Shown here: piece after piece, positions 35,507-49,142 of the stretch
Position numbering within the stretch: position 1 is the stretch's first letter
Layout of the letters: every line of letters begins with the position of its first letter
Virus record (IMG/VR): IMGVR_UViG_3300031997_000007
Location: 7,958 to 71,957 of that record
Reading direction: 5' to 3' (one strand)
DNA: 64,000 bases
Source of the DNA: a virus
Notes under the pieces: generated by a model
Databases searched by the model: none
What the model saw: the letters and a program-made list of their open reading frames with translations, nothing else
What the model was told of the DNA's origin: nothing
Translations under genes and position numbers: made by a program

Positions 35507-36112
35507 ATGAAGCATTTCGGTAACATCGATTTAAATAATAATCTAATGCAACAAATGGTGATGGAATTAGAAACTAATTTTCCAGATAGTCCTGTTGCCG
35601 GTCGTATCATATTTAAAGACAAACGCGTATATATGTGTGTTGAAATTTTAAATGGATTACCAGTATGGGTTCCATTGACCAATGAATTAAATACATATGT
35701 GCATCGTCAAACTGGTCAAAGTAACACATGGAACATAAACCATAACTTAAACACTACAACTCCAATGATTCAAATATATGATGTAAATCACCTTTATGTT
35801 ATTCCTAATGCTGTAGCGATTGTTGACAATAATAATTTAAATGTGACGTTTGGATATCCAATAATTGGATCTGCGGTACTTATGTTCGGTGAAGCTATTA
35901 CCGGATCCTCAAGAACATCTACAGCATATACCTCCACTCAAACAGCACCTTCATCTGCTTGGGTAATTATACATGAATTAGGGTATTTTCCAGTTGTTAG
36001 AGTATTCATCGGTAATGTTGAAGTACAACCAGATTCAATTACTCATAATTCAATATTTCAACTAACTATTAACTTCTCATCACCACAAGTTGGTGTTGCA
36101 AGATTAGTGTAA
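35507..36112 (+). CDS. Fibre-associated protein with two WxIxHNL modules
   Basis: N-terminus resembles that of the fibre gene; GGAG RBS before ATG 35507. Confidence 0.7.
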   Translation: MKHFGNIDLNNNLMQQMVMELETNFPDSPVAGRIIFKDKRVYMCVEILNGLPVWVPLTNELNTYVHRQTGQSNTWNINHNLNTTTPMIQIYDVNHLYVIPNAVAIVDNNNLNVTFGYPIIGSAVLMFGEAITGSSRTSTAYTSTQTAPSSAWVIIHELGYFPVVRVFIGNVEVQPDSITHNSIFQLTINFSSPQVGVARLV

Positions 36113-36123
36113 GGTAACTAAAC

Positions 36124-36351
36124 ATGGCATATCAAAACGTACTCGCATCGTATTTATACGCACAAAATGAAGAATCTGATACTTGGGTTCTTGTACATAA
36201 TTTAGGTCAAGCAGCTCCAATTGTTGATTGTTGGACAATATATAATGGTGACATAACTAATATAATTCCACTATCAGTAACTGTTAATGATCCATACACT
36301 GCAACTGTAGTTTTTTCATCAGCGCGAACAGGTTTCGCGTCTGTGGTATAA
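36124..36351 (+). CDS. Single WxIxHNL-module protein
   Basis: WVLVHNLG...VVFSSARTGFASVV. Confidence 0.7.
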   Translation: MAYQNVLASYLYAQNEESDTWVLVHNLGQAAPIVDCWTIYNGDITNIIPLSVTVNDPYTATVVFSSARTGFASVV

Positions 36352-36362
36352 GGAGAATATTA

Positions 36363-36596
36363 ATGGCTATATCAGCATATAATCACATACAATCAGATCC
36401 TAGCAATTCATGGACAATAACCCATAATTTAAACACAACCGCTGTTAATTTAGATGTTGTGATACTAGATGATAATTTAAATAAAAAAATTCTACCTGGT
36501 AATATTATAACACAGGATAACAATACTATAATAGTTACATTTACGACAGAGCACACTGGTAGTGCTCGTGTAATCGGTACTCAAATAGTACTATAA
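36363..36596 (+). CDS. Single WxIxHNL-module protein
   Basis: WTITHNLN...VTFTTEHTGSARVI; AAGGAG RBS. Confidence 0.7.
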   Translation: MAISAYNHIQSDPSNSWTITHNLNTTAVNLDVVILDDNLNKKILPGNIITQDNNTIIVTFTTEHTGSARVIGTQIVL

Positions 36597-36692
36597 TAAT
36601 AATATTAAAATTTTAATTAATTCTTGAGCTTATTAACATATTAACAAATAATGATAAATAATATAAAATATATCAATACAGGAATATAACAC

Positions 36693-37811
36693 ATGTTTGA
36701 AAATACAATACCAATACCAGTACAAGTTCATGGATATGTACATATAGAAGACGATTTAGGTAATGTTTATTTAGATAAGAGCAACGCTATTCATCCAGCT
36801 AATATGGGTCGTGTTTTTGCAAGAGCTCTAGCTAATGAAAGCAATTATTGGATTAACCGTATAGCTTTTGGCAATGGTGGGACTGTTGTAGATGCGGCAT
36901 ATAATATAACATATAAAACACCTAATGATGGATTACCTCCTGATGCTGCTGGATGGAAATCGTGTCTTTATAATGAAACATATTCTGAATATATCAATGA
37001 AAGTAGCATATTAATAAGCTCTGGAGTAGGAGCTGTACCTTCAAGTGATCCACTAGCTATATTAAATAATATGTCAGGCCCGGGAGTAGTAAGTGTTGAT
37101 CAGGGATTAATATCACAAGTTGTTATAACATGTGTTTTAAATCCAAATGAACCGTTGAGTCAATATCCAACTGATATTGTTGGAAATGCTCTTAATAATG
37201 TAACTGAATATACCGAAACACCTTTTACGTTTGATGAAATTGGATTATTTACAGCGGGTACTACAGTTATTGCAACTCCCGGTACACAAAGTGTTAATGT
37301 AAGTATAAAAACAGCAACTGACCCGACTGGATTACTTCCAGATACCACATACATATTTGATATTAATGTTAGTGGAACTATACAACATATTACTATTCAT
37401 ACACCATTAACAGGATCTGGTGTTGGCGGACAAATTCTATATAGTGATTTAATTATATTATTAAATGTTACAATAGCTGATGCTACTGTTTCTATTAATG
37501 ATGGGACTAATATGACATACGGATATTTAAAGTTTACTAATGACGATGTTGGAGTTAATGCTAATATTACTTTAATAACCCCTGCTAGTCCTCCTGATAA
37601 TTGGTTATTCGATGGATTAAATAGCTTTATAGGATTTCTTGCACCTGTCAATGGAACAGATGGTGGTGTTGATAACGACTTAAATAATCCTACACATGAA
37701 GCCCAACGCATGTTAACTCATCTAATTTTTAGCCCGGTACTTAAAGCTGCAAATAGAACATTTATTATTAAATACACATTAACAATATCAGTTGCACGCT
37801 CTGAACAATAA
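36693..37811 (+). CDS. Virion structural protein (tail/baseplate associated)
   Basis: IAFGNGG, FDEIGLF and RMLTHLIFSPVLKAANRTFIIKYTL motifs. Confidence 0.7.
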   Translation: MFENTIPIPVQVHGYVHIEDDLGNVYLDKSNAIHPANMGRVFARALANESNYWINRIAFGNGGTVVDAAYNITYKTPNDGLPPDAAGWKSCLYNETYSEYINESSILISSGVGAVPSSDPLAILNNMSGPGVVSVDQGLISQVVITCVLNPNEPLSQYPTDIVGNALNNVTEYTETPFTFDEIGLFTAGTTVIATPGTQSVNVSIKTATDPTGLLPDTTYIFDINVSGTIQHITIHTPLTGSGVGGQILYSDLIILLNVTIADATVSINDGTNMTYGYLKFTNDDVGVNANITLITPASPPDNWLFDGLNSFIGFLAPVNGTDGGVDNDLNNPTHEAQRMLTHLIFSPVLKAANRTFIIKYTLTISVARSEQ

Positions 37812-37848
37812 CATCTTATATTTTAATGATAAGTAGGTATTTAAATAT

Positions 37849-38058
37849 ATGAAGGGACCAGGACAGTCGAATAGTTTTTCAAGACGTGCTAAAGCAATGG
37901 ATGGTAATAGCATACCAAATCAGTATGTTAATAAGAATTATGGTGTTAAACGTAAAGCGAAAGCCCATAAATATAGCATTATTAGTACAGGAACTGGTAA
38001 ATATTATGGCTCAAAAGCTATAATGGAAACTTTTAAAGAATTTCTTATACGCACATAA
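37849..38058 (+). CDS. Hypothetical basic protein
   Basis: ORF track. Confidence 0.5.
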   Translation: MKGPGQSNSFSRRAKAMDGNSIPNQYVNKNYGVKRKAKAHKYSIISTGTGKYYGSKAIMETFKEFLIRT

Positions 38059-38089
38059 TAAATATTTTCGCATAAATAAAAAAGAATAG

Positions 38090-38117
38090 TTGCATTAAAG
38101 AATAAATATTATATAAT
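38090..38117 (+). promoter_or_regulatory. Sigma70-type promoter TTGCAT-N16-TATAAT for the micro-ORF/tRNA region
   Basis: Near-consensus hexamers, A-rich upstream tract, AAGGAG RBS downstream. Confidence 0.6.
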
Positions 38118-38142
38118 AGAACTATAGTTCAAGGAGATGACA

Positions 38143-38205
38143 ATGAAACGAGATATAATATGGATTGCACCAGTTTTTAAAGGTCCAGGAGTTTACTGGG
38201 GTTGA
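38143..38205 (+). CDS. Micro-ORF 1, MKRDIIWIAPVFKGPGVYWG
   Basis: AAGGAG RBS; manual translation. Confidence 0.6.
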   Translation: MKRDIIWIAPVFKGPGVYWG

Positions 38206-38249
38206 TTGATAATTGGCCAACTACTGGATTTATTGATCCAGATTGGTGA
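38202..38249 (+). CDS. Micro-ORF 2, MIDNWPTTGFIDPDW (TTG start)
   Basis: TTGA overlap with the ORF1 stop; W/P composition. Confidence 0.4.
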   Translation: MIDNWPTTGFIDPDW

Positions 38250-38253
38250 TAAT

Positions 38254-38322
38254 ATGAAAGATATAATGCCTTTATTACCTTATACCGTTGTTAAACCTGG
38301 TTGGGCTCCAACTGATGTATAA
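38254..38322 (+). CDS. Micro-ORF 3, MKDIMPLLPYTVVKPGWAPTDV
   Basis: aatATGAAA start context; P/W-rich. Confidence 0.5.
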   Translation: MKDIMPLLPYTVVKPGWAPTDV

Positions 38323-38341
38323 GTGGCCTGTTGTAATATGA
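38315..38341 (+). CDS. Micro-ORF 4, MYKWPVVI
   Basis: Overlaps the ORF3 stop and the ORF5 start (ATGA). Confidence 0.3.
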   Translation: MYKWPVVI

Positions 38342-38445
38342 AAGACTTAAGACCTATTCATTGGCCAGAACTCATTTTATGGATACTACCATGTGGTATC
38401 ACATGTATTATACCAGGTTTTGGTATAATTGTTCCCGCGATGTGA
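38338..38445 (+). CDS. Micro-ORF 5, MKDLRPIHWPELILWILPCGITCIIPGFGIIVPAM
   Basis: aatATGAAA start; hydrophobic and P/W-rich. Confidence 0.5.
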   Translation: MKDLRPIHWPELILWILPCGITCIIPGFGIIVPAM

Positions 38446-38450
38446 ATAAT

Positions 38451-38588
38451 ATGAAACAAAAAGTTATTCTGCAAAAAGCGAAAAGAATTGGTACTATAAA
38501 ATGGCCAGATGATGTTCCTTGGGATATTATACTTCCATGGATTGCAGGTCCTAGACCAGCTCCATGGATTACATTCCCAGGACCATAA
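38451..38588 (+). CDS. Micro-ORF 6, MKQKVILQKAKRIGTIKWPDDVPWDIILPWIAGPRPAPWITFPGP
   Basis: aatATGAAA start; 4 Trp and 8 Pro; C-terminal part of ORF-track call 38361..38588. Confidence 0.55.
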   Translation: MKQKVILQKAKRIGTIKWPDDVPWDIILPWIAGPRPAPWITFPGP

Positions 38589-38589
38589 A

Positions 38590-38628
38590 ATGAATAAAAA
38601 TAAACAGTGGCCTATTTGGCCTAAATAA
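38590..38628 (+). CDS. Micro-ORF 7, MNKNKQWPIWPK
   Basis: Starts 1 nt after the ORF6 stop; WP twice. Confidence 0.45.
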   Translation: MNKNKQWPIWPK

Positions 38629-38672
38629 CATATAATATAAACAAGTTAAACAAATTTAAAAAGAGACAAGAA

Positions 38673-38735
38673 ATGAAAACTATCGTAATGCCCATGATTA
38701 TTGTGAAACATCCGGATGCGCCCATTATTGTGTAG
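38673..38735 (+). CDS. Putative attenuator leader peptide MKTIVMPMIIVKHPDAPIIV
   Basis: Overlaps the 5' arm of a long hairpin; composition matches the downstream tRNAs. Confidence 0.7.
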   Translation: MKTIVMPMIIVKHPDAPIIV

Positions 38736-38783
38736 ATAGTATATCGTTTTTTAAATCTACCAATAATGGGCCTGAAAGTTTCA
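38704..38783 (+). promoter_or_regulatory. Putative antiterminator hairpin
   Basis: GCCCATTATTG(720-730)/CAATAATGGGC(761-771), GTAGAT/ATCTAC and TGAAAC(704-709)/GTTTCA(778-783), all in 38xxx coordinates. Confidence 0.65.
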
Positions 38784-38802
38784 AACTTATCAGGTTTTTT
38801 TT
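38771..38802 (+). terminator. Intrinsic terminator (attenuator) upstream of the tRNA cluster
   Basis: CCTGA-AAGTT-tca-AACTT-a-TCAGG followed by T8. Confidence 0.8.
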
Positions 38803-38885
38803 ATGGTTGTTAAAACACAGAAATAAAATGTAAAAGAACACAGTAATTAAATGTAAGAAAACAAGTGAATAAAAGTGATTATCGG

Positions 38886-38959
38886 GGAGAATGTAGCTTA
38901 ATTGGTAAAGCCCTCGCCTGTGAAGTGAGTAGTTGGGAGATCGTAGCTCCTCATTCTCC
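38886..38959 (+). tRNA. tRNA-His(GUG) with G-1, atypical T-loop, no encoded CCA
   Basis: G-GAGAATG/CATTCTC-C acceptor, GCTT/AAGC D stem, CTCGC-CTGTGAA-GTGAG anticodon arm. Confidence 0.85.
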
Positions 38960-39856
38960 CCGATATACATTTTCATATTCATCTACCATGAAAACTAAGC
39001 TTTCATAAGTGATTGAGGATTTTGTTTTTTTAATATTATTATTTGTTTGTGACATTATTTCACAATTTAAAGGATGTGAAATATAATAAGGATCATAATT
39101 ATGTTTAACTGCATCTTTTACTGATATTTTATGATCTCGACTAAGCCCTGTAGGATTAAGTGTTTTATTTCCAAACTTACCACCATTGGAAAACCAACCT
39201 ACTGATTTAATTAAATTTAAATCAAATATATTAGGATAGTCATATACATTAAATTTAAATCTATATATTTGACGCATACCATCAAAATATAGTGATGCAC
39301 AGTTATAGCAATATTTTTGTTTATTTTTGATTAAAGTTACATTAGAACAATGAGTACAACAACATTTATATAATTTACTATATGGAATATTGTTTTTATC
39401 AGCTTCTGTAATTGCAATTTTTATTGATATTTTAATAAATTGAGTATTCGTAATAATACGTTCTTTACGTTCTTTACTTTTATGAGTATTTGAAATTTTA
39501 GTTTTTGTCGCAGTTGTTAGAATACGACCAGTATTAGTATATGATGCTGAACACGAATTATTACAAAAGTTATTTCTTCGTGATTTATATGGTATTATTG
39601 TAGAGCAGTATTTGCATATTTTAGGATTTAAGTTGTATGTTTGTTTAACTAATATTGCTTTTGTACGAACATAATTCGTACAATCTCGCTTTTTACAATT
39701 TTCTTTATTTTTAATTGTAACATCATCAGTTTGTATAGGATGATTAGGATATTGATTTCGAAAATTAACATATGAAATATTATGTAGTTTTAAATGATTA
39801 TTGGTTATTTTCTTAAATTGTTTAAAACAAATAGGACAAGTAATATATGAGTTCAT
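38951..39856 (-). mobile_element. Free-standing HNH homing endonuclease with Zn-finger modules, antisense within the tRNA cluster
   Basis: CPIC..H..H and CKYC..FCNNSC; C-terminal SRDHKIS...HPLNCEIMSQTNN; late-type GATAAATA at 39887-39894. Confidence 0.8.
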
Positions 39857-39905
39857 AATTATAATATTAAAATAAGTTTAAATATATATTTATCAATATT
39901 ATTGA

Positions 39906-39932
39906 AGGGGTTCGAATCTCTCCAGTCACCCC
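39906..39932 (+). pseudogene. Orphan tRNA 3' fragment (T-arm plus acceptor strand, His-like C73)
   Basis: AGGGG-TTCGAAT-CTCTC-CAGTCAC-CCC with no matching 5' half nearby. Confidence 0.6.
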
Positions 39933-39963
39933 TATAATTATTTTCAACTAAAGAGTATGTAAA

Positions 39964-40152
39964 ATGAATGTACAAGAAGTGATTGATAAATTAATGTTAG
40001 TTAAAGATAAATCAAAACACTTACAAGTTACCATTACTCGATGTGGGCGAAGTTGGTGTTCAACTAATGATATAGATGATATTATTGAAGAAGATACAGT
40101 AGTTGAAGCTACTGGTGGTGAAACAGATCAAGGTGGATTGAGATATTTTTAA
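39964..40152 (+). CDS. Hypothetical protein within the tRNA cluster
   Basis: ORF track. Confidence 0.55.
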   Translation: MNVQEVIDKLMLVKDKSKHLQVTITRCGRSWCSTNDIDDIIEEDTVVEATGGETDQGGLRYF

Positions 40153-40166
40153 ATAGTATTTTTTGT

Positions 40167-40239
40167 AGTGATGTGGCTAAGCCGGTAAAGCACCTCCTTC
40201 ATACGGAGAAAATCGTTGGTTCGAACCCAACCATCACTA
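40167..40239 (+). tRNA. tRNA-Met(CAU) (Met vs Ile2 not resolvable by eye), no CCA
   Basis: AGTGATG/CATCACT, CTCC-TTCATAC-GGAG, GTTGG-TTCGAAC-CCAAC. Confidence 0.85.
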
Positions 40240-40262
40240 CAAAATGTATTTAAACGAAATAC

Positions 40263-40336
40263 AGCTCTATAGTTCAAAGGTAGAACATTACGCTGATAAC
40301 GTAAAGACACAAGATCGATACCTGGTAGAGCTACCA
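40263..40336 (+). tRNA. tRNA-Ile(GAU) with encoded CCA and imperfect T-arm
   Basis: AGCTCTA/TAGAGCT-ACCA, TTACG-CTGATAA-CGTAA. Confidence 0.85.
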
Positions 40337-40357
40337 ATTTTAAAAAGTATACTTAGT

Positions 40358-40431
40358 AGGTACGTCGTTCAGCGGCCTAGAACACCACCCTTTTAAGGTG
40401 GGAATCGTGGGTTCAAATCCCACCGTACCTA
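40358..40431 (+). tRNA. tRNA-Lys(UUU), no CCA
   Basis: AGGTACG/CGTACCT, CCACC-CTTTTAA-GGTGG, GTGGG-TTCAAAT-CCCAC. Confidence 0.88.
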
Positions 40432-40466
40432 CTAAGTGTATTTTAGAAGAGTAAAGTCAACGTTGT

Positions 40467-40539
40467 AGGAGTATAACTCAATTGGTAGAGTGTCGCATTT
40501 ACATTGCGGAAGTTATCGGTTCAATTCCGGTTACTCCTA
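40467..40539 (+). tRNA. tRNA-Val(UAC), no CCA
   Basis: AGGAGTA/TACTCCT, TCGCA-TTTACAT-TGCGG, ATCGG-TTCAATT-CCGGT. Confidence 0.88.
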
Positions 40540-40572
40540 CAATGTTGATTTAAAACAAATAGTAGGTATTGT

Positions 40573-40644
40573 CAGTCTGTAGCCAAGCGGTATGGCGCCA
40601 AATTTGGGGTTTGGAAATCGGGAGTTCGAGCCTCTCCAGACTGA
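40573..40644 (+). tRNA. tRNA-Pro(UGG), no CCA
   Basis: CAGTCTG/CAGACTG-A (C1-G72, A73), CCAAA-TTTGGGG-TTTGG. Confidence 0.88.
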
Positions 40645-40716
40645 CAATACCTATTAAATCAATGAGTTAACATATAAGATAATAAGGAACTAGCAATAAC
40701 CTATAAAATTGAAAAC

Positions 40717-40860
40717 ATGGAGGTTTTTTCTGTTTTTTCTATGAACGGCTTTAATGAAGCATGGGAACGAATTACTACTTTATGTGAGATGGCTGCTTTA
40801 TTAAATAAACCAAAAGAAAAAATTGAAATACCAGCACCTGTAAATCCATTAAAATTTTAG
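40717..40860 (+). CDS. Small hypothetical ORF (47 aa; frame also open from ATA at 40696)
   Basis: MEVFSVFSMNGFNEAWERITTLCEMAALLNKPKEKIEIPAPVNPLKF. Confidence 0.4.
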   Translation: MEVFSVFSMNGFNEAWERITTLCEMAALLNKPKEKIEIPAPVNPLKF

Positions 40861-40873
40861 TTAATTATAATTG

Positions 40874-40902
40874 TTGATTAATTCTACAAAATATTATATA
40901 AT
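40874..40902 (+). promoter_or_regulatory. Sigma70-type promoter TTGATT-N17-TATAAT
   Basis: Near-consensus hexamers with 17-nt spacing. Confidence 0.7.
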
Positions 40903-40932
40903 ATGATTTTATTAATAATTTAGAGGACAACA

Positions 40933-41274
40933 ATGACTATTCATGTAAAAAATATTAAAATTTTAAAAGGATATTTTGATAAAGTTGTGGAAAGAACACA
41001 GTGTCATGCAGGGAATGTTGGTCAAGTAATTTTTCCCTTATTAGGATTTATTGTTAATAAAATGGATGAAAATTCTGATATTCAAGTTAGAGGAAATGAT
41101 GCAACTGGTAACATTCTTTGGATCTTTATAGGTGGTACTAGATATGCGTTTCGTTATGAGCATAGCGATGAAACTATTGAAATTAGAGAAAATAGCTATA
41201 TGGGACCACTTATTGCAAAAGTTGATAATAGTACCACAACTTCAAAACTTGAAACTATATTTGCAAATTTGTAA
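40933..41274 (+). CDS. Integron cassette protein VCH_CASS14-like
   Basis: HAGNV...NILWIFIGGTRYAFRYEH...IEIRE pattern recognised from memory of the family. Confidence 0.65.
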   Translation: MTIHVKNIKILKGYFDKVVERTQCHAGNVGQVIFPLLGFIVNKMDENSDIQVRGNDATGNILWIFIGGTRYAFRYEHSDETIEIRENSYMGPLIAKVDNSTTTSKLETIFANL

Positions 41275-41480
41275 TATATAAAAATATTATATAATTAAAT
41301 TTTATATAAGTGAATAATATATTTTAATATATCATATTCAACTAAATTCATACACAGATGCATTGTTCTTTATTATCTTACGTCCAGTTATACATGCACT
41401 TAGTATAACGCAGCAACACGGTTATCTTCAAAATTACGTATTATTTACTAAATAATATTACAATAATAAGGAGTAAGATA

Positions 41481-42050
41481 ATGCAAACGTATCATTATGC
41501 ACAAGCCAGAGAATTAATTAAAGATGGGGATATTATTTTCTTCAAAAATAAACCAAATATATCTTCAAAACTAATTGAAGCCATAACTGATTCACCGTTT
41601 TCTCATGTGGCTATAGCTTTTTGGGTTGAAGTGGCTTGTAAAAATATACATAAAACAAAACGATTAATGATCGTTGAAGCTACTGGTCATACTAATAATA
41701 GAGATATTGTAAACTTATCAAATGAATGTATTTATGATATGATAGTATTATCTCCACCACTGAAATGGATTGATATTAGTGAAAATGCACTTGATAGAGT
41801 TGGACTAGTACCTTACGGATGGACCGATGGTGCATTAATTGGAATTCAATCTTTAATATATAGAGGATTTGGTAAAAAAATAAATATTGGTGGTGGGCGA
41901 GGTGAATATTGTTCAGAATTTGTTGCTAAAGCTTACAAATTACCAAACACAGAAATAACCCCACACGAATTATATGATACTTTGATATCACAATATAAAT
42001 GCGAGGTTAGATTTGAAATTGTACCACTATCTACCGATATAATTGTTTGA
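41481..42050 (+). CDS. Permuted papain-like amidase (YaeF/YiiX, peptidase C92)
   Basis: DGDIIFF, FSHVAI, YCSEFVAKAY and ITPHEL. Confidence 0.85.
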   Translation: MQTYHYAQARELIKDGDIIFFKNKPNISSKLIEAITDSPFSHVAIAFWVEVACKNIHKTKRLMIVEATGHTNNRDIVNLSNECIYDMIVLSPPLKWIDISENALDRVGLVPYGWTDGALIGIQSLIYRGFGKKINIGGGRGEYCSEFVAKAYKLPNTEITPHELYDTLISQYKCEVRFEIVPLSTDIIV

Positions 42051-42482
42051 TTATTTAATAGCTACCGGTTTTGTTGTTTTTGCAAGTGATTCAAAAGATT
42101 GACTTGTAGTTGGTGTTTGAATTTGTTGTTGCATTGGTGCACCTTTTTGTCCACCACCAAATGGTAGCATTTGTCCGCTAGCGGTACGTAATTTTGCTAA
42201 TTGATTAAAATACAATAAAGCATTCATTCCATTCCCTAAAGTATGTTGTTCTAACATAGACCAAAGTTCTGTATATAACGCTGCGCTTTTGTGTAATAAT
42301 ATATTGCGCAGACGTTGTTTATCGATATTATCAAGTGATGATAGTGCGAAAAAATAAGTATCTCCATTTGGAAACTTCTTTAAAATAGCGCATTCAATCA
42401 TCACACCGTTGTTTTCTAAATCCATCCATTCAAGGAATCTGTAATTACCTGGTGTTGATTGGTTTTGTGTATTTGGCTCCAT
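42051..42482 (-). CDS. Conserved hypothetical phage protein
   Basis: AGGAGG before MEPNT; TLGNGMNALLYFNQL. Confidence 0.7.
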   Translation of the reverse strand: MEPNTQNQSTPGNYRFLEWMDLENNGVMIECAILKKFPNGDTYFFALSSLDNIDKQRLRNILLHKSAALYTELWSMLEQHTLGNGMNALLYFNQLAKLRTASGQMLPFGGGQKGAPMQQQIQTPTTSQSFESLAKTTKPVAIK

Positions 42483-42591
42483 ATATCCTCCTAAAGAATA
42501 ATTATTGTTATATAAGCTCACCACTATTTATTACATAAAAAACAAGGGTATCTTATAAATACAAATACAACAATCATTGGAGGTAAACATT

Positions 42592-42939
42592 ATGAGTGCA
42601 TTATTAATAGCACATAGTAATGAAATTTTATTCGCAGTAGCTACAATAGTAGGTCTCGTGAGTCATTATATAAAAAAACGTCTTAAAAATGAAACCGCTG
42701 TACCTATTCATGAATGGTTTGGATCATCAAATTGGCCAGGATCATTGACATCAATAGGTACGACTATAGCTATTATAGTTACTGCTTTAGCAAATGGTGT
42801 AATTGTTGAAGGAATGACATTTTGGAGTGTAATCTATACTGGATTTCTTACTGGGTACGCTATTGATAGTTCAACTAATACAGACCAAGCTTCAGTAGAT
42901 CGTAGTATAGTAATTAAAGAAGAAAAATTAAACAATTAA
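42592..42939 (+). CDS. Small 3-TM membrane protein, holin candidate
   Basis: Hydrophobic segments and charged C-tail; TATAAATA at 42554-42561. Confidence 0.55.
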   Translation: MSALLIAHSNEILFAVATIVGLVSHYIKKRLKNETAVPIHEWFGSSNWPGSLTSIGTTIAIIVTALANGVIVEGMTFWSVIYTGFLTGYAIDSSTNTDQASVDRSIVIKEEKLNN

Positions 42940-42940
42940 T

Positions 42941-43906
42941 TTACCTACTCAACATTGGAATGAATTGATCGAGACTTTTACTTACATTTTTTAATTCATA
43001 TTTACCTAAAAATTTTAAAAAATGAAAATGACTGTATTTACCTCGATTGTTCATTTCGTGATTAATTGATTCCCATATTAAATCTTGAATATGATCGGGT
43101 TGATGGGTTAAATTAGTTAATAATATATTTTCTTTAACTAATGTACCAACACTCATTACTTTTTCATCTTCATTTACCCAAGTTCGTTGCATTAAATTAG
43201 TGTGTGCATAATCATCAGAGTACGCTTCAAATATTTTCTTCTTACGGAATCTAGGCAATGCTGATTGTATATTATCACCAGTATCACCTGTTAATGATTT
43301 CTCATATAAAAAATAATCAACATCATAATTCCATTTTTCTAATGTACGATCTTTACCAGTTGCAGGATCAATTAACCGTACATTCTTATAACGTAATAGT
43401 TGTAATAAGTCCTTATCAGCACTTACAACAACTACATTATGAGATGTATCGTTAAAATCATCGATGTTATATGTTGTTTTATTATTAGTACCTGCATCAT
43501 CACCTCCGTATATGTAACATAATCCAGCAATTAGATCATCTGCTTCTAATTTATCTTTTGCAAGACACACAATTGCAGTATGCGTACGAATTAAGTCTTC
43601 AAAATCCATAATAAATTGTTTAAATAACTCATACATCTTAGTTTGTTTTTGAGTCATAACTAATCTACGAGTACCTTTATATAATCTACCCGAATAACAT
43701 TCAGGTGATTTTGTATAATCAACTCGCCAATTAGCTCTATCAAACACACAAATAAGTCGATCAGGTTTATGTAATTTATAATATTTGTTTAATGTAGTAA
43801 ATGTTGCATGAAATGCTAATTTGACTAACATATCTAGATCTTCAGTCTGATGTACGTAGAACGTCTTGTGCAAAATATTATGTGCATCTACAATTAAAAA
43901 TTTCAT
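42941..43906 (-). CDS. rnh: T4-type RNase H / 5'-3' flap exonuclease
   Basis: LIVDAHN, YKGTR, LEADDLI, VSADKDLLQL and GDTGDNI. Confidence 0.92.
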   Translation of the reverse strand: MKFLIVDAHNILHKTFYVHQTEDLDMLVKLAFHATFTTLNKYYKLHKPDRLICVFDRANWRVDYTKSPECYSGRLYKGTRRLVMTQKQTKMYELFKQFIMDFEDLIRTHTAIVCLAKDKLEADDLIAGLCYIYGGDDAGTNNKTTYNIDDFNDTSHNVVVVSADKDLLQLLRYKNVRLIDPATGKDRTLEKWNYDVDYFLYEKSLTGDTGDNIQSALPRFRKKKIFEAYSDDYAHTNLMQRTWVNEDEKVMSVGTLVKENILLTNLTHQPDHIQDLIWESINHEMNNRGKYSHFHFLKFLGKYELKNVSKSLDQFIPMLSR

Positions 43907-45350: not shown

Positions 45351-48300
45351 CTAAAATGTAAATAATTCTTTTACGTGAAATAGTTGAGCTGTTGGTACTT
45401 CTTCGTTAATAGCGTTAAGTATATGTTCTAACGGTTTATCAACTAAACGATACAGTTGTGCATCCCTATCGAGTATAGGTAAAAAGTATTCATAAAACCA
45501 AGATGGTACAGTATCAATATCTGTTGGTAATGCAATTGATTTAAACTTTCCAAATTTTGATTTAAGATAAAATACTTTTAACTTAGTTCCTGAAGTTATT
45601 ACTGGAGATTCATGATCTTCATGTTCTTTAAGCTGAATATTATAATATATAGCTGCAGCAACGTGACCGGGTAGTCTACAAGTACGATCGCGCTCATAAG
45701 ACACTGTATAATTCTCAACATTATTAACTCCTTTTGGTAACCCTATAGATAAAATATCTTGGGTGTTTATTAATTCTTTTTTATATGCAACCACTTCTGC
45801 TGCAATAGAATCCCAAGTTGCCCCTTTCAATAAACGTTCAATAAATTTTGTTAATGTTTGTTGAACTGGCTTTGGCAATGTGGTTTTCTTTAATTCTAAT
45901 CCCATTATTTTTAACTTATCAACAGCATGACCTTCACTATCGATAATATGTAACATGTATCGTTTTTTATCAACAAATATACCACGATCACTAACAATTT
46001 CTCTTGCAGTTTTTATCTTTTGATCATATCCCGGTTGACATAAAAACGCTTCTCTCATAAATGCTGGGAAAGATTTGTTTACAACCTCCGCTACCGCATC
46101 CGCAGTTTTTATTGCTTCTTCAGAGTTTTGTGTATACGTTTTATAATAACATGAATCTGTATTATGTACTAAAATATTATTAGCAAAAAATGTATGAGTG
46201 TCTTCAACTTCAATATCATAAACGTAATCATCATATTCAAGTTTTTCAATTTTTGTAATACGACATAAACTAATACCATAATCAAGAACCATTTTAGTTG
46301 CATTACCACGTTTTTTAATAATACAGTTTTGTTTTCTTGTTAATATAAATCCAATCTTTTCTCTAAATCCATAACCATCTTTAATGTTTAAATGATAACT
46401 ATATGTTCCTGTACTTATATTTTTATATAAATTAGGTGTTGTTTCTTGAAAATAATTTGACGGTATACCACAATAAAATAATAATTGCTGTACACCAATA
46501 ATATTTTCATATGTAATAGAACATAATGATACTTTACCTTTAATTGAAGTAGATCCATCTGCACTAAAATACCCACTTAAAAAATACCCAATATGCTCTT
46601 CTGTCTCTTGAAATATAAATTTTGGAATTCTTTTTATACCTGTTTCATATAATGTAGATCTAAGTAAATAATATAATTTAGACCCACATATTCTAACATC
46701 ATGAGTATTAGATTGTTCTTTAAATGAAGTAATCCATTTTTGTTTAATTAATGGTAATAATAATTTTTCAATAACTTCTTCTTTATCTTGATTTCCTATA
46801 CTTAATCCTATATTACCTTGAACTGTTTTTGCAACATAACCATCACCTAATACATACCCCATTATTTGATATATTTCTTTTGTATAATTTAAATCATTAA
46901 TATTAATTCTTGGAATTCGCTTTAGAAATATTAAACTATTAGCAATTATACCGATTTCTTCAGGCTTAACGTTAATTAATCTTGTTTCTCCTGGTTTCCA
47001 TACATTAGTGTTTCTATAACCAATTAATGAGTGGTCTTCAGTTACATCAATAAAATTTGTATTTGATATACATACTCTATACATTTGTTTAGCTGTTTTA
47101 TGTCTCATTACATACTTTACAGATTTATAACATGAATCTTGTAATACTTCATCATATGTTAGTACTTGTAAATTACTAGGATGATAATATTCTTTATTGT
47201 TAATAATTATTTCAGTTTCATTAAACAAATTACATATATTACATAATCCTATGTTTGTATATATTTTAGAATCATGTGCCACAGAGTCTCCGTATACTAT
47301 TGATTCTGAAGGAAATTCTCCTTTAAACACTGGCCCGTGTAGTGCTAAATCAGGAGAACATCCATGCTCAATACACTCTTTAACTGTTTCATATAATGGA
47401 AAATTTGTATTATATGGACCACCTAATAATTCTGATACTTTACGGCATTGATGTCGTAAAATCATTCTACCAGTTCCAGTTACAGATTCACCTGCTTCTA
47501 ATTTAAAAAATCTAAAATTATAATTGGTGAGTGCTCCATATGTACTATTTAACCGTATCTTTGTAACAAATTGTAATCGATCATAATAATTTGATTTTTC
47601 AATTAATCCATCATATTGTGTAGGATTCGCACTTGCTTCATCATGATATTGTAATTTTAATTTTTGAAATTCCTTTCGTTCAACATACCAATTACTTAAT
47701 ATTGTTGGAATAATACCCGGGTTAGTTTGATCATACACTGTTCCATATCCACTAACTGCCCATTTTTTATTCAACATATAACCAACCCATTCAGAGGTTG
47801 TTTTACTTATAGTACTACCATCTGCTAGAAATAATGTTAATTCTTCTTCTCTACGTGCATATAATGTTTCCCAATCATTAATATTATTCTCAAATTGTCC
47901 AATATATGTTTCTGGGCTAATATTTATCGCAATAATGGCTGATGGATACAGTGATGAAATATCTATTGATCCAATATGTTCATGCATACCTTGTTGTGGT
48001 AATAATACATATGCACCTTGAATACTACCATCTGCGGTATCCCACCTATCTGGAACTTTAACATTTAAATCATTATGACAATAATTAATAATAGCATAAT
48101 CAACTAACTTAACTGTACCATGAATGTGAGTAAATAACCCACATGATGAATGACACATTTCATTTGCAAGTGCCATATATCCTAATTTATCTTCAAAACC
48201 TTTCAATATTTCAGTATCACGAACATTATATCGAATAAAATGATTAAAATCATTATGATACAAAGACGCTAATGTTCCTGTATACGATAATTTAGGTAAA

Positions 48301-49142
48301 TGTGGTAAAAATTCATCTGCAATTGCCTCCAATTTATAACTTGGACGTTCTTTAAATTCATATTTTTTAAATATTTCTAAATAATCGACAGATACTCTAC
48401 CATATATATCTACAAAACATTGAGTTCGATTTCGTACAAGTGTTTCACGAAATCTAGGTATAGGTGCATCCGGAAAGGACATCCGTTTTAACGCTCGTGG
48501 GCCTAATATTTGATTAATTCGTTTACAAATATATGGGTCATCGAACCCGTTTGAATTCCAACCCGTGATTAACGTAGTGTCTTCAATAAGATCTAAAAAC
48601 CGTAATAGTAATGATCGTTCATTTTTAAAAAATTCCACTTTCGATAAATCACGTAATGATTCATCAAAATCATTCATATCAAAACCCGGCGGGGGTACTG
48701 CAAGTACATATGATTCTCCCAACCAGTAATGATGTAATGATATTGCATTTACAGGTGCGTATGGATTTAATGGTGATGAAAATCCGATTAATGGATTATA
48801 ATCAACCTCAATATCATACATAGTTATATTAAGTTTTGGTGCAGGTTGTTTATAATATAATTTAGATAATACCTTAAATTCAATATCTATATCTGATTCA
48901 TACAACTTAATTCGTTTTTCATCAATTAAGAATTTTTTTGCTTCTTCAAACTCATAATAAGAATCAAATGAATACTTTTTTAGTTTTTCATTAAAAACAC
49001 TAACATATTCACCGTCTTTATCTGCTATATAAAATTCATAAATACCTGGATATCGTTTACATGTTGTAACGTGATTTTCACTATGCCATACAAGTACTTT
49101 ATTTGTTTTTCTATCTAATTTAGCTGATATATAACTCATCAC
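45351..49142 (-). CDS. gp43: Family B DNA polymerase with intein
   Basis: YDIEVD, WNSNGFDDPY, DISSLYPS, KIRLNSTYG, YGD|TDS and KKRY. Confidence 0.97.
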   Translation of the reverse strand: MMSYISAKLDRKTNKVLVWHSENHVTTCKRYPGIYEFYIADKDGEYVSVFNEKLKKYSFDSYYEFEEAKKFLIDEKRIKLYESDIDIEFKVLSKLYYKQPAPKLNITMYDIEVDYNPLIGFSSPLNPYAPVNAISLHHYWLGESYVLAVPPPGFDMNDFDESLRDLSKVEFFKNERSLLLRFLDLIEDTTLITGWNSNGFDDPYICKRINQILGPRALKRMSFPDAPIPRFRETLVRNRTQCFVDIYGRVSVDYLEIFKKYEFKERPSYKLEAIADEFLPHLPKLSYTGTLASLYHNDFNHFIRYNVRDTEILKGFEDKLGYMALANEMCHSSCGLFTHIHGTVKLVDYAIINYCHNDLNVKVPDRWDTADGSIQGAYVLLPQQGMHEHIGSIDISSLYPSAIIAINISPETYIGQFENNINDWETLYARREEELTLFLADGSTISKTTSEWVGYMLNKKWAVSGYGTVYDQTNPGIIPTILSNWYVERKEFQKLKLQYHDEASANPTQYDGLIEKSNYYDRLQFVTKIRLNSTYGALTNYNFRFFKLEAGESVTGTGRMILRHQCRKVSELLGGPYNTNFPLYETVKECIEHGCSPDLALHGPVFKGEFPSESIVYGDSVAHDSKIYTNIGLCNICNLFNETEIIINNKEYYHPSNLQVLTYDEVLQDSCYKSVKYVMRHKTAKQMYRVCISNTNFIDVTEDHSLIGYRNTNVWKPGETRLINVKPEEIGIIANSLIFLKRIPRININDLNYTKEIYQIMGYVLGDGYVAKTVQGNIGLSIGNQDKEEVIEKLLLPLIKQKWITSFKEQSNTHDVRICGSKLYYLLRSTLYETGIKRIPKFIFQETEEHIGYFLSGYFSADGSTSIKGKVSLCSITYENIIGVQQLLFYCGIPSNYFQETTPNLYKNISTGTYSYHLNIKDGYGFREKIGFILTRKQNCIIKKRGNATKMVLDYGISLCRITKIEKLEYDDYVYDIEVEDTHTFFANNILVHNTDSCYYKTYTQNSEEAIKTADAVAEVVNKSFPAFMREAFLCQPGYDQKIKTAREIVSDRGIFVDKKRYMLHIIDSEGHAVDKLKIMGLELKKTTLPKPVQQTLTKFIERLLKGATWDSIAAEVVAYKKELINTQDILSIGLPKGVNNVENYTVSYERDRTCRLPGHVAAAIYYNIQLKEHEDHESPVITSGTKLKVFYLKSKFGKFKSIALPTDIDTVPSWFYEYFLPILDRDAQLYRLVDKPLEHILNAINEEVPTAQLFHVKELFTF
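46161..47285 (-). mobile_element. Intein (375 aa) with LAGLIDADG endonuclease in the YGDTDS motif
   Basis: YGD|SVAHDS...VTEDHSL...GYVLGDG...FLSGYFSADG...VYDIEV...LVHN|TDS. Confidence 0.95.

Follow-up and report, generated by a model that had tools for sequence, protein, structure and literature searches.

Why should a phage enclose most of its tRNA genes in flanks that pair with each other, and leave the terminal CCA out of those same genes? The question is raised by a tRNA cluster on a 64,000-nucleotide stretch of DNA from a large uncultured phage (positions 7,958 to 71,957 of IMG/VR record IMGVR_UViG_3300031997_000007; hereafter, the window, whose coordinates are used throughout). An original prediction held that five of the six tRNAs there have 5′ leaders complementary to their 3′ trailers, and proposed as checks tRNA calling, folding with flanks, and a survey of flank complementarity against shuffled flanks and ordinary phage tRNAs. 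The helices are present, and the hallmarks of an RNase III site that they carry point to a previously undescribed way of cutting tRNAs from their precursors.

Leader–trailer helices in the tRNA cluster

Both ARAGORN and Rfam call six tRNA genes in the window, all on the plus strand: tRNA-His(GUG) (38887–38959, positions 1–73), tRNA-Met(CAU) (40167–40239), tRNA-Ile(GAU) (40263–40333, with an encoded CCA at 40334–40336), tRNA-Lys(UUU) (40358–40431), tRNA-Val(UAC) (40467–40539), and tRNA-Pro(UGG) (40573–40644). All six match RF00005 over its full length (model positions 1–71) at 53.5–66.7 bits, against a gathering threshold of 29 bits; the scores are 53.5 for His, 64.8 for Met, 66.7 for Lys, 66.6 for Val, and 58.7 for Pro. 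We number the tRNA body to the discriminator as 1–73, the leader with minus numbers, and the trailer from 74 upward. The letters after position 73 are CAA in Met, Val, and Pro, CTA in Lys, and CCG in His, so that CCA is encoded in Ile only and absent from the other five.

It is these five that carry the helices, or clamps. Counted as an unbroken run outward from -1:73, with G·U permitted, the flanks of tRNA-Lys form 14 contiguous pairs (40344–40357 with 40431–40444), those of tRNA-Val 13 (40454–40466 with 40539–40551), and those of tRNA-Pro 13 (40560–40572 with 40644–40656), all on the plus strand and as originally predicted. The tRNA-His clamp has seven contiguous pairs counting G-1:C73, which agrees with the predicted six beyond that pair, and its helix resumes after a 2×2 internal loop with six more pairs and then five past a bulge (arms at 38867–38886 and 38959–38980, plus strand). 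In tRNA-Met (arms at 40155–40166 and 40239–40250, plus strand), the predicted inner run of six pairs is there, but the eight pairs expected past an internal loop are in fact five (-8 to -12, two of them G·U) after a 1×1 U·U mismatch. tRNA-Ile, which had been singled out as the one gene with both an encoded CCA and no extension, indeed has no contiguous flank pairs and serves as an internal control.

Chance is ruled out as the cause of these helices by a scan of the record, by shuffling, and by comparison with ordinary tRNAs. Across the 71,957-bp record (both strands, spacings 72–75), runs of at least six pairs occur at 0.42% of placements and runs of at least 13 at seven of 574,536, tRNAs included. 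Folded with their flanks, the five clamped tRNAs reach z = -4.6 to -7.6, with none of 200 shuffles as good, whereas tRNA-Ile reaches z = -0.95, with 33 of 200 as good. Among 526 tRNAs from 56 IMG/VR loci, 524 have a flank run of no more than three pairs. Because plain contiguous runs miss helices with one mismatch, an anchored helix score was also used. The clamp is absent from 28 tRNAs of XacN1, five of GAP32, and eight of T4.

In a 551-nt fold, every clamped tRNA forms a separate module, and the modules are joined by unpaired linkers of 8–9 nt, such as the purine-rich, 9-nt Lys–Val linker (40445–40453, plus strand) and the Val–Pro linker (40552–40559, plus strand). A 6-bp hairpin (40246–40262, plus strand) ends at -1 of tRNA-Ile and overlaps the outermost, optional Met pairing. 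An Rfam search of 36000–43000 returned nothing but tRNAs, so the stalks do not enclose an rRNA of an rRNA operon, and a promoter and terminator scan of 38300–41000 gave nothing usefully above shuffles. Next to tRNA-His lie an ORF that resembles a homing endonuclease and an orphan 3′ fragment of a tRNA; a search for a 5′ half matching the fragment found none. Assembled contigs of four sediment DNA runs are identical over the clamps where they cover them, so no strain variation was seen, and two joints (39908 to 40065 and 40253 to 40339), each found in one contig with 21-letter sides, are too weak for use.

The stalk and its relatives in other phages

Stalks of this design also enclose Pro, His, Asn, and Met tRNAs of other phages, both uncultured ones and the cultured Alcaligenes phage vB_Af_QDWS595. 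Aligning 12 non-His clamps from the window, seven IMG/VR loci, and one cultured phage reveals a common plan: an inner box (U-4 W-3 G-2 U-1 / A73 C74 W75 A76), five covarying pairs, and an outer box (A-12 G-11 U-10 / A82 U83 U84) with a fixed G·U wobble. In the inner box, to be read knowing that part of the set was found via patterns requiring it, U:A at -1:73, G:C at -2:74, and U:A at -4:76 are each present in 12/12, and -3:75 is an A/U pair in 11/12 and never G:C. Farther out, -5:77 is A/U or G·U throughout (A/U in 11, one U·G), -6:78 is C:G in 8/12, and -7 to -9 are variable, so that the middle pairs accept G:C freely while two specific pairs, 75:-3 and 77:-5, are without it. The outer box then follows with U:A at -10:82, G·U at -11:83, and A:U at -12:84, each in 11/12. 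The original remark that each flank is different consequently holds for the middle five pairs, but not for the inner four or the outer three.

Within the window, the inner box of the Met leader reads UUGU and its outer box AGU (40155–40157), with G-11 at 40156; the wobble base lies at 40347 in Lys, 40456 in Val, and 40562 in Pro. The corresponding trailers read A73 C74 A75 A76 … A82 U83 U84 in Met and A73 C74 U75 A76 A77 G78 … A82 U83 U84 in Lys. In tRNA-His the entire box system lies one pair farther out: the window leader has G-1 (38886), G-2, and G-3 and an outer box A-13 G-12 U-11 (38874–38876), and the trailer has C73, CCG (38960–38962), and an outer box A83 U84 U85 (38969–38971). This outward shift of the outer box is found in 7/7 His clamps, with U:A replacing U·G in two.

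Several features support selection on these flanks as RNA. Along the tRNA strand, the non-Watson–Crick pairs within the helices are 19 G·U and 2 A·C, both scored alike (the rows being partly related), and the helices covary in related phages, together supporting the original suggestion that the G-U pairs reflect RNA-level selection. For the tRNA-Pro stalk (seven sequences including the window), 8/14 pairs have changed on both sides with 95.9% of cells still paired, a level that none of 500 shuffles attains; for the tRNA-His stalk of six other phages, 4/12 pairs have changed on both sides and pairing is 100%.

The clamp also excludes an encoded CCA. Within a tRNA-Pro family that was picked by its anticodon arm, the clamp is found in 6/6 CCA-less members (four distinct flank sequences) and 0/14 CCA-encoding ones (Fisher p = 2.6e-5); in one phage, clamped tRNAs are CCA-less in 3/3 cases and unclamped tRNAs CCA-encoding in 26/26. 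The original prediction had named the replacement of CCA by CAA, CTA, or CCG as the companion of the clamp, and the endings are correct, but CCA-less phage tRNAs without a clamp, which are themselves frequent (507/852 unclamped tRNAs in a biased sample), commonly end with C74 and then A or T too. On these sequences, the trait specific to the clamp is thus its mutual exclusion with an encoded CCA, not the ending itself.

Clamped tRNAs are a minority elsewhere, about 3 of 25–44 in a complete 70-kb N4-type genome and in a 95%-complete 162-kb contig. In viral_contigs, the exact tRNA-Lys 25-mer had no match, the pattern ACTTAGT..ACTAAGT gave chance palindromes and no clamp among the matches listed (80 loci examined), a 372-aa neighbouring protein had no close relative with the same tRNA cluster, and relatives of the DNA polymerase (42–46% identity) came from loci and records without tRNA. 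In metagenome_contigs the polymerase had one 78% relative, on a 10.6-kb contig that stops before the tRNA cluster. Against cultured phages, blastn of the whole region gave a single hit, in GAP32, to the C-terminal portion of the ORF that adjoins tRNA-His, and blastn of a clamped tRNA-His from another locus had no match. A scan of genome_contigs with the tRNA-Pro arm gave two MAG contigs, with no clamp and no host clue.

A match to RNase III determinants at the tRNA ends

We assign a probability of roughly 55% to the reading that host RNase III excises the clamped tRNAs, at cuts predicted here from sequence, and that the CCA-adding enzyme finishes them. The clamp would serve as a processing stalk, with the layout of a bacterial RNase III site and a tRNA in place of the hairpin loop. 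In the polycistronic precursor, the 13–14 nt on either side of the tRNA would pair and prolong the acceptor stem to about 20 bp of helix (about 25 bp with the T stem stacked on it), and this helix would present, outward along the trailer strand, a proximal box (A/U, A:U, A/U, G:C) and, nine and ten pairs out, a distal U·G and then U:A. The cut by host RNase III would separate C74 from N75 in the trailer and, with the 2-nt stagger, -1 from +1 in the leader; a single enzyme would in this way free a tRNA with a mature 5′ phosphate end and a 3′ N73-C74-OH, to which the host CCA-adding enzyme would supply C75 and A76. Position 75 would sit in the proximal-box pair beside the scissile bond, where G:C suppresses cleavage, and we propose that this is why the clamped genes carry CAA or CUA in place of CCA. 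In tRNA-His, boxes lying one pair out would place the cuts before G-1 and after C75, and may thereby keep the extra 5′ G that this tRNA needs.

The published determinants, as given in the parts of the sources drawn on here, are a helix of 11 bp beyond the scissile bond (PMC1540722, PMC3867540); a proximal box of GC, AU/UA, AU, AU/UA, whose position 4 adjoins the scissile bond and in which GC/CG blocks catalysis at position 4 and binding at position 2 (PMC1540722); and a distal box of UA and UG, two such boxes lying 22 bp apart (PMC1540722, PMC3867540). The spacing and orientation of the distal box were verified on the R1.1 hairpin of the T7 record. We scored six determinants in eight registers, by the rules of E. 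coli, which may not be those of the host. All 12 non-His clamps score best with a cut after nt 74 (mean 5.33/6, against no more than 2.25 in any other register), including Lys at 6/6 and Met, Val, and Pro at 5/6 each, and all seven His clamps score best one position later (mean 4.71). No unclamped tRNA reaches 5/6 in any register (0/838), and 0.9% of random AU-rich helices do. Moreover, the clamps that no pattern had selected behave alike, with two Asn and one Met at 5/6 at nt 74 and two His at 4/6 and 5/6 at nt 75. The predicted 3′ cuts fall at 40240/40241 in Met, 40432/40433 in Lys, 40540/40541 in Val, and 40645/40646 in Pro; for His the predicted cuts are 38885/38886, which keeps G-1, and 38961/38962, after C75.

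With the cut after nt 74, bp 1–10 (75:-3 to 84:-12) are paired in Lys, Val, and Pro, and 85:-13 is mostly paired; the Met U·U mismatch falls at bp 5 and the His 2×2 loop at bp 5–6. Among the 12 non-His clamps, the proximal box has A/U at 75:-3 in 11, A:U at 76:-4 in 12, and G:C at 78:-6 in eight, and G:C or C:G occurs at 75:-3 or 77:-5 in none. The distal box appears as U83·G-11 (bp 9) and U84:A-12 (bp 10), each in 11/12, with U on the strand that runs from cut to box. The consensus alone is weak, in that a strict 6/6 scan of the 72-kb record finds the Lys clamp only and shuffles give 0–2 sites; what counts is its placement at tRNA ends. Of the explanations offered originally, the evidence favours a special maturation route, the flanks resembling an RNase III site at the tRNA ends.

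Not every detail agrees. According to the portions consulted, a G:C beside the scissile bond reduces E. coli cleavage 7–14-fold (PMC1540722), and sites mapped in vivo prefer G-C/C-G for the two pairs enclosed by the staggered cuts, with A/U outside (PMC6212723). The invariant G-2:C74 (in His, G-2:C74 with G-3:C75) fits the latter preference, but non-His clamps have G:C at just one of the two pairs. Beside the predicted cut in the leader, pair 1:72 is A:U in Met, Lys, and Val and C:G in Pro; this C1:G72 and the window His G76:C-4 (the one position-4 G:C among seven His clamps) both adjoin predicted scissile bonds. The His clamp of six other phages would leave U-1, not G-1. The inner box by itself is not specific evidence, since U:A at -1:73 and G:C at -2:74 are, in the part of PMC10731613 cited here, frequent in ordinary E. 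coli leaders too, and C74 is kept in unclamped CCA-less tRNAs.

Genes for RNase III (PF14622) or the CCA-adding enzyme (PF01743) were found neither on this contig nor in five clamp-bearing phage records, which include one complete cultured genome and one 95%-complete contig, and this implies host enzymes. In the data cited from PMC10731613, bacterial RNase P is already about 10-fold slower when no more than -1 and -2 are paired with the 3′ end, a helix that must be unwound, so a 13-bp clamp must be opened or cut first. That, for selected tRNAs of some phages, a single staggered cut by host RNase III takes the place of RNase P and of the 3′ exonucleases, with only C75 and A76 left to add, is a more tentative claim, to which we give somewhat less than an even chance.

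Several consequences would follow. The accepted view for bacteria assigns tRNA 5′ ends to RNase P and CCA-less 3′ ends to RNase Z or exonucleases; a phage signal that left both to RNase III would add a third route, which in this phage, with 5/6 tRNAs, would be the rule. The missing C75, the fixed G·U wobble, and the one-pair His shift would all follow from one ruler: the loss of exactly C75 in some phage tRNA genes would be accounted for, tRNA-His would keep G-1 without a special RNase P cleavage, and an outer AGU/AUU box 10–12 pairs from the end would be a sequence rule for viral tRNAs on the route. In phage–host conflict, such tRNAs would mature even with RNase P or 3′ trimming enzymes limiting or targeted, and where engineered transcripts need exact RNA ends, the clamp may offer a compact cassette. 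A direct test is feasible, as vB_Af_QDWS595 is cultured and has the same clamp and E. coli RNase III is obtainable. New here are the shared architecture, its recurrence in other phages, the exclusion of CCA, the match to the RNase III boxes, and the His shift; literature searches outside subscription journals and supplementary files yielded no account of phage tRNAs clamped by leader and trailer, or of tRNA ends made by RNase III, and the part of PMC6212723 used here annotates no E. coli RNase III site in tRNAs outside rRNA operons.

Other readings and known systems

The clamp could instead be a protective or insulating stem, by which each tRNA folds separately in an AT-rich polycistronic transcript and its CCA-less 3′ end escapes exonucleases; the stem would then breathe or be unwound, RNase P would make the 5′ end, RNase Z/BN-type enzymes or exonucleases the 3′ end, and CCA would be added afterwards, as in T4 CCA-less tRNAs. 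The modular 551-nt fold suits this reading, and the frequency of unclamped CCA-less tRNAs in our biased sample shows that a route through host enzymes exists. U at -1, the base preferred by bacterial RNase P, is kept in 12/12 non-His clamps and is the commonest -1 base in unclamped phage tRNAs as well (614/850). We nevertheless regard it as unlikely: a 13-bp extension should strongly hinder an enzyme that a 2-bp extension slows about 10-fold, and insulation explains neither the wobble fixed 11 pairs from the mature 5′ end, nor the one-pair His shift, nor the lack of G:C at two specific pairs when the middle pairs take it freely, nor the exclusion of CCA in the Pro family.

That the boxes are conserved at fixed distances does imply a specific reader, which might be another double-strand-specific protein, such as a phage nuclease, a Mini-III-like enzyme, or a protein measuring from the G·U wobble. 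Only 21% of this phage genome is in hand, and an enzyme of its own could lie elsewhere; moreover, a review states, in the part cited, that distal-box sequences are not conserved among substrates or species (PMC3867540), and the match to T7 R1.1 could be partly coincidental. A dedicated reader is nonetheless rather improbable, given that the RNase III rules match in one register in 19/19 clamps, that the same design occurs in unrelated phages, among them the N4-type genome and the 162-kb contig, neither of which has an RNase III-domain gene, and that about three clamped tRNAs would be a small workload for such an enzyme.

The original prediction also raised protection from toxins that attack 3′ ends and non-chargeable decoys for anticodon nucleases, and we found nothing in support of either. 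The clamped genes would then yield look-alikes that never mature, as decoys or as a stored precursor pool. A blunt 20-bp helix would resist exonucleases, and in some phages (as at locus L136) a clamped tRNA-Pro(UGG) or tRNA-Met does stand beside ordinary CCA-encoding copies with the same anticodon. Yet in the window, and likewise in the Alcaligenes phage cluster, no second gene was seen for the anticodon of any clamped tRNA, the bodies score as normal tRNAs (53–67 bits), the acceptor stems covary as in working tRNAs (both sides have changed in 5/7 pairs), and C74 and A76 persist, all of which makes decoys very improbable.

Least credible is that the inverted repeats act in DNA, as ends of mobile tRNA cassettes or homing-endonuclease targets with the RNA helix a by-product: the inner flanks of the window tRNA-Lys and the L136 tRNA-Met are identical (9 nt per side), the ORF and orphan fragment beside tRNA-His would suit it, and T-even tRNA clusters hold the annotated homing endonuclease SegB, but a G·T mismatch conserved in 11/12 is senseless in duplex DNA, the mismatches are strand-specific, in every case the helix keeps the register of the acceptor stem, and the covarying middle pairs were not copied as a unit. 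Archaeal bulge-helix-bulge excision needs two 3-nt bulges and a 4-bp helix and is rejected, as the folds show continuous helices.

We thus return to excision by RNase III and to its nearest known counterparts. Leaderless Nanoarchaeum tRNAs have RNase P-free 5′ ends, and these and the archaeal bulge-helix-bulge likewise give ends without RNase P or have paired flanks, although the enzymes differ. T4 also has tRNA genes without an encoded CCA that rely on host repair; its CCA-less tRNAs (Pro, Ser, Ile) undergo RNase BN/Z-type trimming and host CCA addition before RNase P acts. It is rejected as a precedent for the clamps, as its eight tRNAs have no leader–trailer helix (score no more than 1), and its genes abut one another. 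Ordinary pre-tRNAs can show an RNase P anti-determinant in which the leader pairs with 73–75 and prolongs the acceptor stem (PMC10731613, in part), and RNase P is blocked when a synthetic riboswitch conceals the leader (PMC7897497, in part), but that pairing is of 1–2 pairs, which RNase P tolerates, whereas the clamps have 13–14 pairs and conserved boxes.

Closer are the RNase III signals of T7 early RNA, such as R1.1 and its minimal form, which are phage-encoded helices cut by host RNase III; the clamps are phage-encoded helices too and would likewise be read by a host enzyme. The upper stem of R1.1 has the same proximal box (G:C, A:U, A:U, A/U) and, after an A:U, the same distal U·G then U:A, with the same spacing and on the same strand. 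The T7 sites are hairpins between mRNAs, whereas the clamp strands flank a tRNA, the whole tRNA forming the 'loop', with predicted cuts at the tRNA ends. Pairing of flanks across a stable RNA, upheld by covariation, is present in the clamps as in the leader–trailer stalks of 16S and 23S rRNA, where, by the passages cited, one double-strand cut by RNase III frees the RNA (PMC10250234, PMC3867540). The rRNA stalks are longer and lie away from the mature ends, the extra nucleotides being trimmed by other enzymes; the clamps, at 13–14 bp, run straight on from the acceptor stem and would define both ends at a single step.

Extended acceptor helices and their genomic setting

Six tRNA genes, all on the plus strand, were identified concordantly by ARAGORN and Rfam in the window, and in five of them (His, Met(CAU), Lys, Val and Pro) the 5' leader pairs with the 3' trailer in a helix that continues the acceptor stem, hereafter the clamp. 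We number leader positions outward from -1; 73 is the discriminator and 74-76 the CCA site. The clamps lie where the original prediction had placed them, with 14 pairs in Lys and 13 each in Val and Pro, counted outward from -1:73, and 7 in His (G-1:C73 plus six), whose helix resumes beyond a 2x2 loop. For Met, the 6 predicted pairs are present, but the stretch beyond them, claimed as eight pairs, amounts to five past one U.U mismatch. Also as predicted, Ile(GAU), the sole gene with encoded CCA, has 0 flank pairs, and position 73 is followed by CAA in Met, Val and Pro, CTA in Lys and CCG in His. When the flanks are included in the fold, z-scores run from -4.6 to -7.6 for the five clamped tRNAs, equalled by 0/200 shuffles, against -0.95 for Ile. 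The 551-nt cluster folds into separate clamped modules with linkers of 8-9 nt. A scan of the phage's own record at the spacing of a tRNA found complementary runs of at least 13 in 7 of 574,536 trials, the tRNAs being counted in.

In Ile, which alone lacks a clamp, the leader forms a 6-bp hairpin (40246-40262, plus strand) whose last base falls exactly at -1, and the T stem contains non-standard pairs. The T loops of His (ATCGTAG, within 38935-38945, plus strand) and Ile (ATCGATA, within 40311-40321, plus strand) begin with A in place of the usual T54.

The 64-kb window covers most of a virus record of 71,957 bp (30.5% G+C) that is estimated to be 21% complete. Judged from its proteins, the phage groups with jumbo phages: a 372-aa ORF (36693-37811) shares 38.6% identity with a protein of Xanthomonas phage XacN1, with weaker matches in the GAP32/CBB group, and the downstream genes encode a family-B DNA polymerase, SbcCD-like nucleases and helicases. 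The polymerase gene (45351-49142, minus strand) is interrupted at residues ~581-993 by an intein that includes a LAGLIDADG homing endonuclease (Intein_splicing 9.8e-15, LAGLIDADG_3 3.9e-10); in a 78%-identical relative on a metagenome contig (L047) the insert seems to be absent, as the match spans only 2,729 bases. Directly 3' of the tRNA cluster, an ORF at 40933-41274 (plus strand) encodes a member of VCH_CASS14, a family of integron-cassette proteins (PF18315, 5.5e-16). No close relative with the same tRNA cluster was found among the viral and metagenome contigs searched.

Antisense to tRNA-His lies a Cys-rich ORF of 301 aa (38951-39856, minus strand; phrog_23051, without a Pfam match), which extends with its final codons into the 3' end and trailer of the tRNA. 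Its homologue in Cronobacter phage GAP32, GAP32_407, is likewise antisense to a tRNA gene, a tRNA-Met whose 3' end it overlaps. Among named Atlas clusters, those closest to the ORF are of HNH or treble-clef endonucleases, and all score below 0.9. The ORF is probably a free-standing homing-endonuclease-like gene that moves with tRNA genes. Just upstream of its start is an orphan tRNA 3' fragment (39906-39935, plus strand), comprising a T arm and 3' acceptor strand followed by CCC, whose closest resemblance is to phage tRNA-Arg or tRNA-His genes in their 3' halves; the window contains no 5' half to match it. The fragment may be what is left of a tRNA gene that the incoming ORF displaced.

Clamps and encoded CCA in other phages

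Clamps are absent from the 28 tRNAs of XacN1, every one of which has an encoded CCA, from the 5 of GAP32 and from the 8 of T4, and in 56 IMG/VR loci the flank run is 3 or less in 524 of 526 tRNAs. They do recur elsewhere. A scan for the tRNA-Pro(UGG) family, with the anticodon arm as sole criterion, returned 20 genes: all six that lack CCA are clamped (13-15 bp, with four distinct flank sequences), versus none of the 14 ending in ACCA (p = 2.6e-5). In the cultured N4-type Alcaligenes phage vB_Af_QDWS595, a clamped, CCA-less tRNA-Pro heads a run of five unclamped tRNAs with encoded CCA, and its flanks differ from those of the uncultured phage locus L326 by one G:C to A:U exchange. tRNA-His is clamped in six more phages.

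In three clamp-bearing phages whose tRNA genes were surveyed completely, 3/29, 3/25 and 3/44 genes are clamped (Pro, His, Asn, Met), which makes the window, with 5/6, the most extreme case seen. In the 29-tRNA phage, CCA is absent from the three clamped genes and encoded in all 26 others. Altogether 17 of 869 distinct phage tRNAs, a pattern-biased sample, score as clamped, and 16 of these lack CCA; the exception is a His. The bases after the discriminator in CCA-less phage genes (L094-L342), clamped or not, are mostly CAA, CTA, CAT or CTT, so that C74 is retained and C75 lost irrespective of the clamp. Among the first 526 IMG/VR tRNAs there are 257 CAA and 70 CCA endings, in a sample biased by a pattern requiring ACAAT. 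A tRNA-Met(CAU) with a U1.U72 mismatch (L136, 12277-12350, minus strand) comes from a phage of 50% G+C; nine flank bases on each side are identical to those of the window tRNA-Lys (40344-40444), although the tRNA bodies differ.

Clamp architecture and the determinants of RNase III

When the 12 non-His clamps are aligned by position, an inner box emerges with U:A at -1:73 (12/12), G:C at -2:74 (12/12), an A/U pair, never G:C, at -3:75 (11/12) and U:A at -4:76 (12/12). The -1/-2 features of this box are not peculiar to clamps, as ordinary leaders and genes without CCA can have them too. Next come an A/U or G.U pair at -5:77 (12/12) and C:G at -6:78 (8/12); positions -7 to -9 are free and covary. 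An outer box then comprises U:A at -10:82, G.U at -11:83 and A:U at -12:84 (11/12 each), and pairing tails off past -13. This AGU/AUU box is present in all four non-His clamps of the window, despite their different tRNAs and middle pairs. In all seven His clamps it lies exactly one pair farther out (in the window, A-13 G-12 U-11 at 38874-38876 opposite A83 U84 U85 at 38969-38971, plus strand). Six uncultured phages (L326, L330, L333, L335, L340 and L341) have clamped tRNA-His genes in which C73 faces U-1, not G-1.

This arrangement resembles the E. coli RNase III rules derived from R1.1, a processing signal of phage T7 early RNA. According to PMC1540722, the minimal substrate needs an 11-bp helix beyond the scissile bond, with a four-pair proximal box (G:C; A:U or U:A; A:U; A:U or U:A, the fourth adjoining the bond), a middle box at pairs 6-7 and a distal box of U:A and U.G. 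Catalysis drops 7-14-fold when the fourth proximal pair is G:C or C:G, binding is blocked when the second is, and reversal of the distal U.G costs 50-fold (PMC1540722). A review puts the distal box ~11 bp from the target, with 22 bp separating the outer ends of two such boxes (PMC3867540). In the T7 record, the GCAA-loop hairpin between promoters phi1.1A and phi1.1B has, counted away from its loop, the pairs C:G, U:A, U.G, A:U, C:G, U.G, G:C, G:C, A:U, A:U, in agreement with the labelled pairs of PMC1540722 in spacing and orientation.

We scored six determinants in eight registers, taking the trailer as the cleaved strand, which runs from the cut towards the distal box. All 12 non-His clamps fit best with a cut after nucleotide 74 (mean 5.33/6; other registers at most 2.25), by E. 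coli rules that may not be those of the host; Lys of the window scores 6/6 and Met, Val and Pro 5/6. The seven His clamps fit best one position later (mean 4.71; window His 4/6). Whatever the register, a score of 5 is attained by 0/838 unclamped tRNAs; among random AU-rich helices, 0.9% attain it in a given register. Part of the comparison set was retrieved by patterns containing the inner box, and five clamps outside any search pattern show the same fit. Beside the predicted leader cut, Met, Lys and Val have an A:U pair at 1:72, and unclamped tRNAs seldom start with A (94/850). RNase III sites in vivo in E. coli favour G-C/C-G at the two pairs between the cuts, with A/U beside them (PMC6212723), a preference that the invariant G-2:C74, and G-2:C74 with G-3:C75 in His, would fit.

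A predicted excision route and its alternatives

On this sequence evidence, we predict that the clamped tRNAs are excised by RNase III, at somewhat better than even odds (probability about 0.55); the exact bonds are proposed with less confidence than the excision as such. Two extra pairs slow RNase P ~10-fold and require unwinding (PMC10731613), so a 13-bp clamp cannot be neutral for the usual route. That the clamp instead protects or folds the tRNA, which is then matured by RNase P and RNase Z-like enzymes, is improbable, though the best of the alternatives. Counting against the RNase III match, C1:G72 of Pro and G76:C-4 of the window His fall at pairs where the E. coli enzyme disfavours G:C. 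Distal boxes are reportedly not conserved across species (PMC3867540); that something other than RNase III reads the boxes seems unlikelier still.

RNase III cuts the two strands with a 2-nt offset (PMC6212723). Because of this offset, excision by RNase III at 74|75 in the trailer would entail cleavage of the leader at -1|+1, which is where the mature 5' end lies. The tRNA so released would carry its 5' phosphate at +1 and finish in N73-C74-OH. CCA-adding enzymes are able to extend such an end; that the clamped tRNAs are decoys we consider very unlikely. Position 75 would then belong to the proximal-box pair that adjoins the bond, at which G:C acts as an antideterminant, and the need to avoid G:C there would account for both the CAA/CUA endings and the mutual exclusion of clamp and CCA.

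For His, the one-pair shift would place the cuts at -2|-1 and 75|76, so that G-1 (38886) would be retained and C74 and C75 may remain. G/C would have to be avoided only at position 76, which is U in 5/7 His clamps, A in one and G in the window's. HisRS normally needs G-1; against the RNase III match, the six other His clamps would leave U-1. Neither an RNase III domain (PF14622) nor a CCA-adding enzyme (PF01743) was found on the phage's own contig or in five other clamp-bearing records (one a complete cultured genome, one 95% complete), which implies host enzymes, with most of this phage's own genome lying outside its record.

The selection at the RNA level proposed originally is borne out. 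With G.T and A.C scored alike, the odd pairs inside the helices, read on the tRNA strand, are 19 G.U versus 2 A.C, some rows being related. Across seven Pro genes including the window's, 8/14 clamp pairs have changed on both sides; 95.9% of cells are paired (0/500 shuffles as high), a percentage that follows from choosing rows with a helix, whereas the compensatory changes do not. The clamp is as good in this respect as the acceptor stem of the same genes (5/7 pairs changed on both sides). In the His clamps of the six further phages, 4/12 pairs have changed on both sides with all cells paired. These patterns indicate that the clamps act in RNA and are maintained by selection, and a role at the DNA level is the least credible of the alternatives.

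A search of the literature, mostly open-access main texts, found no account of phage-tRNA clamps or of RNase III setting tRNA ends. According to PMC6212723, RNase III does not serve to make tRNA ends in E. coli. New here are the box-by-box agreement of the clamps with the rules of the enzyme, the shift of the ruler in tRNA-His, and the exclusion of CCA together with a proposed reason for it; vB_Af_QDWS595 makes a cultured phage available as a test system.
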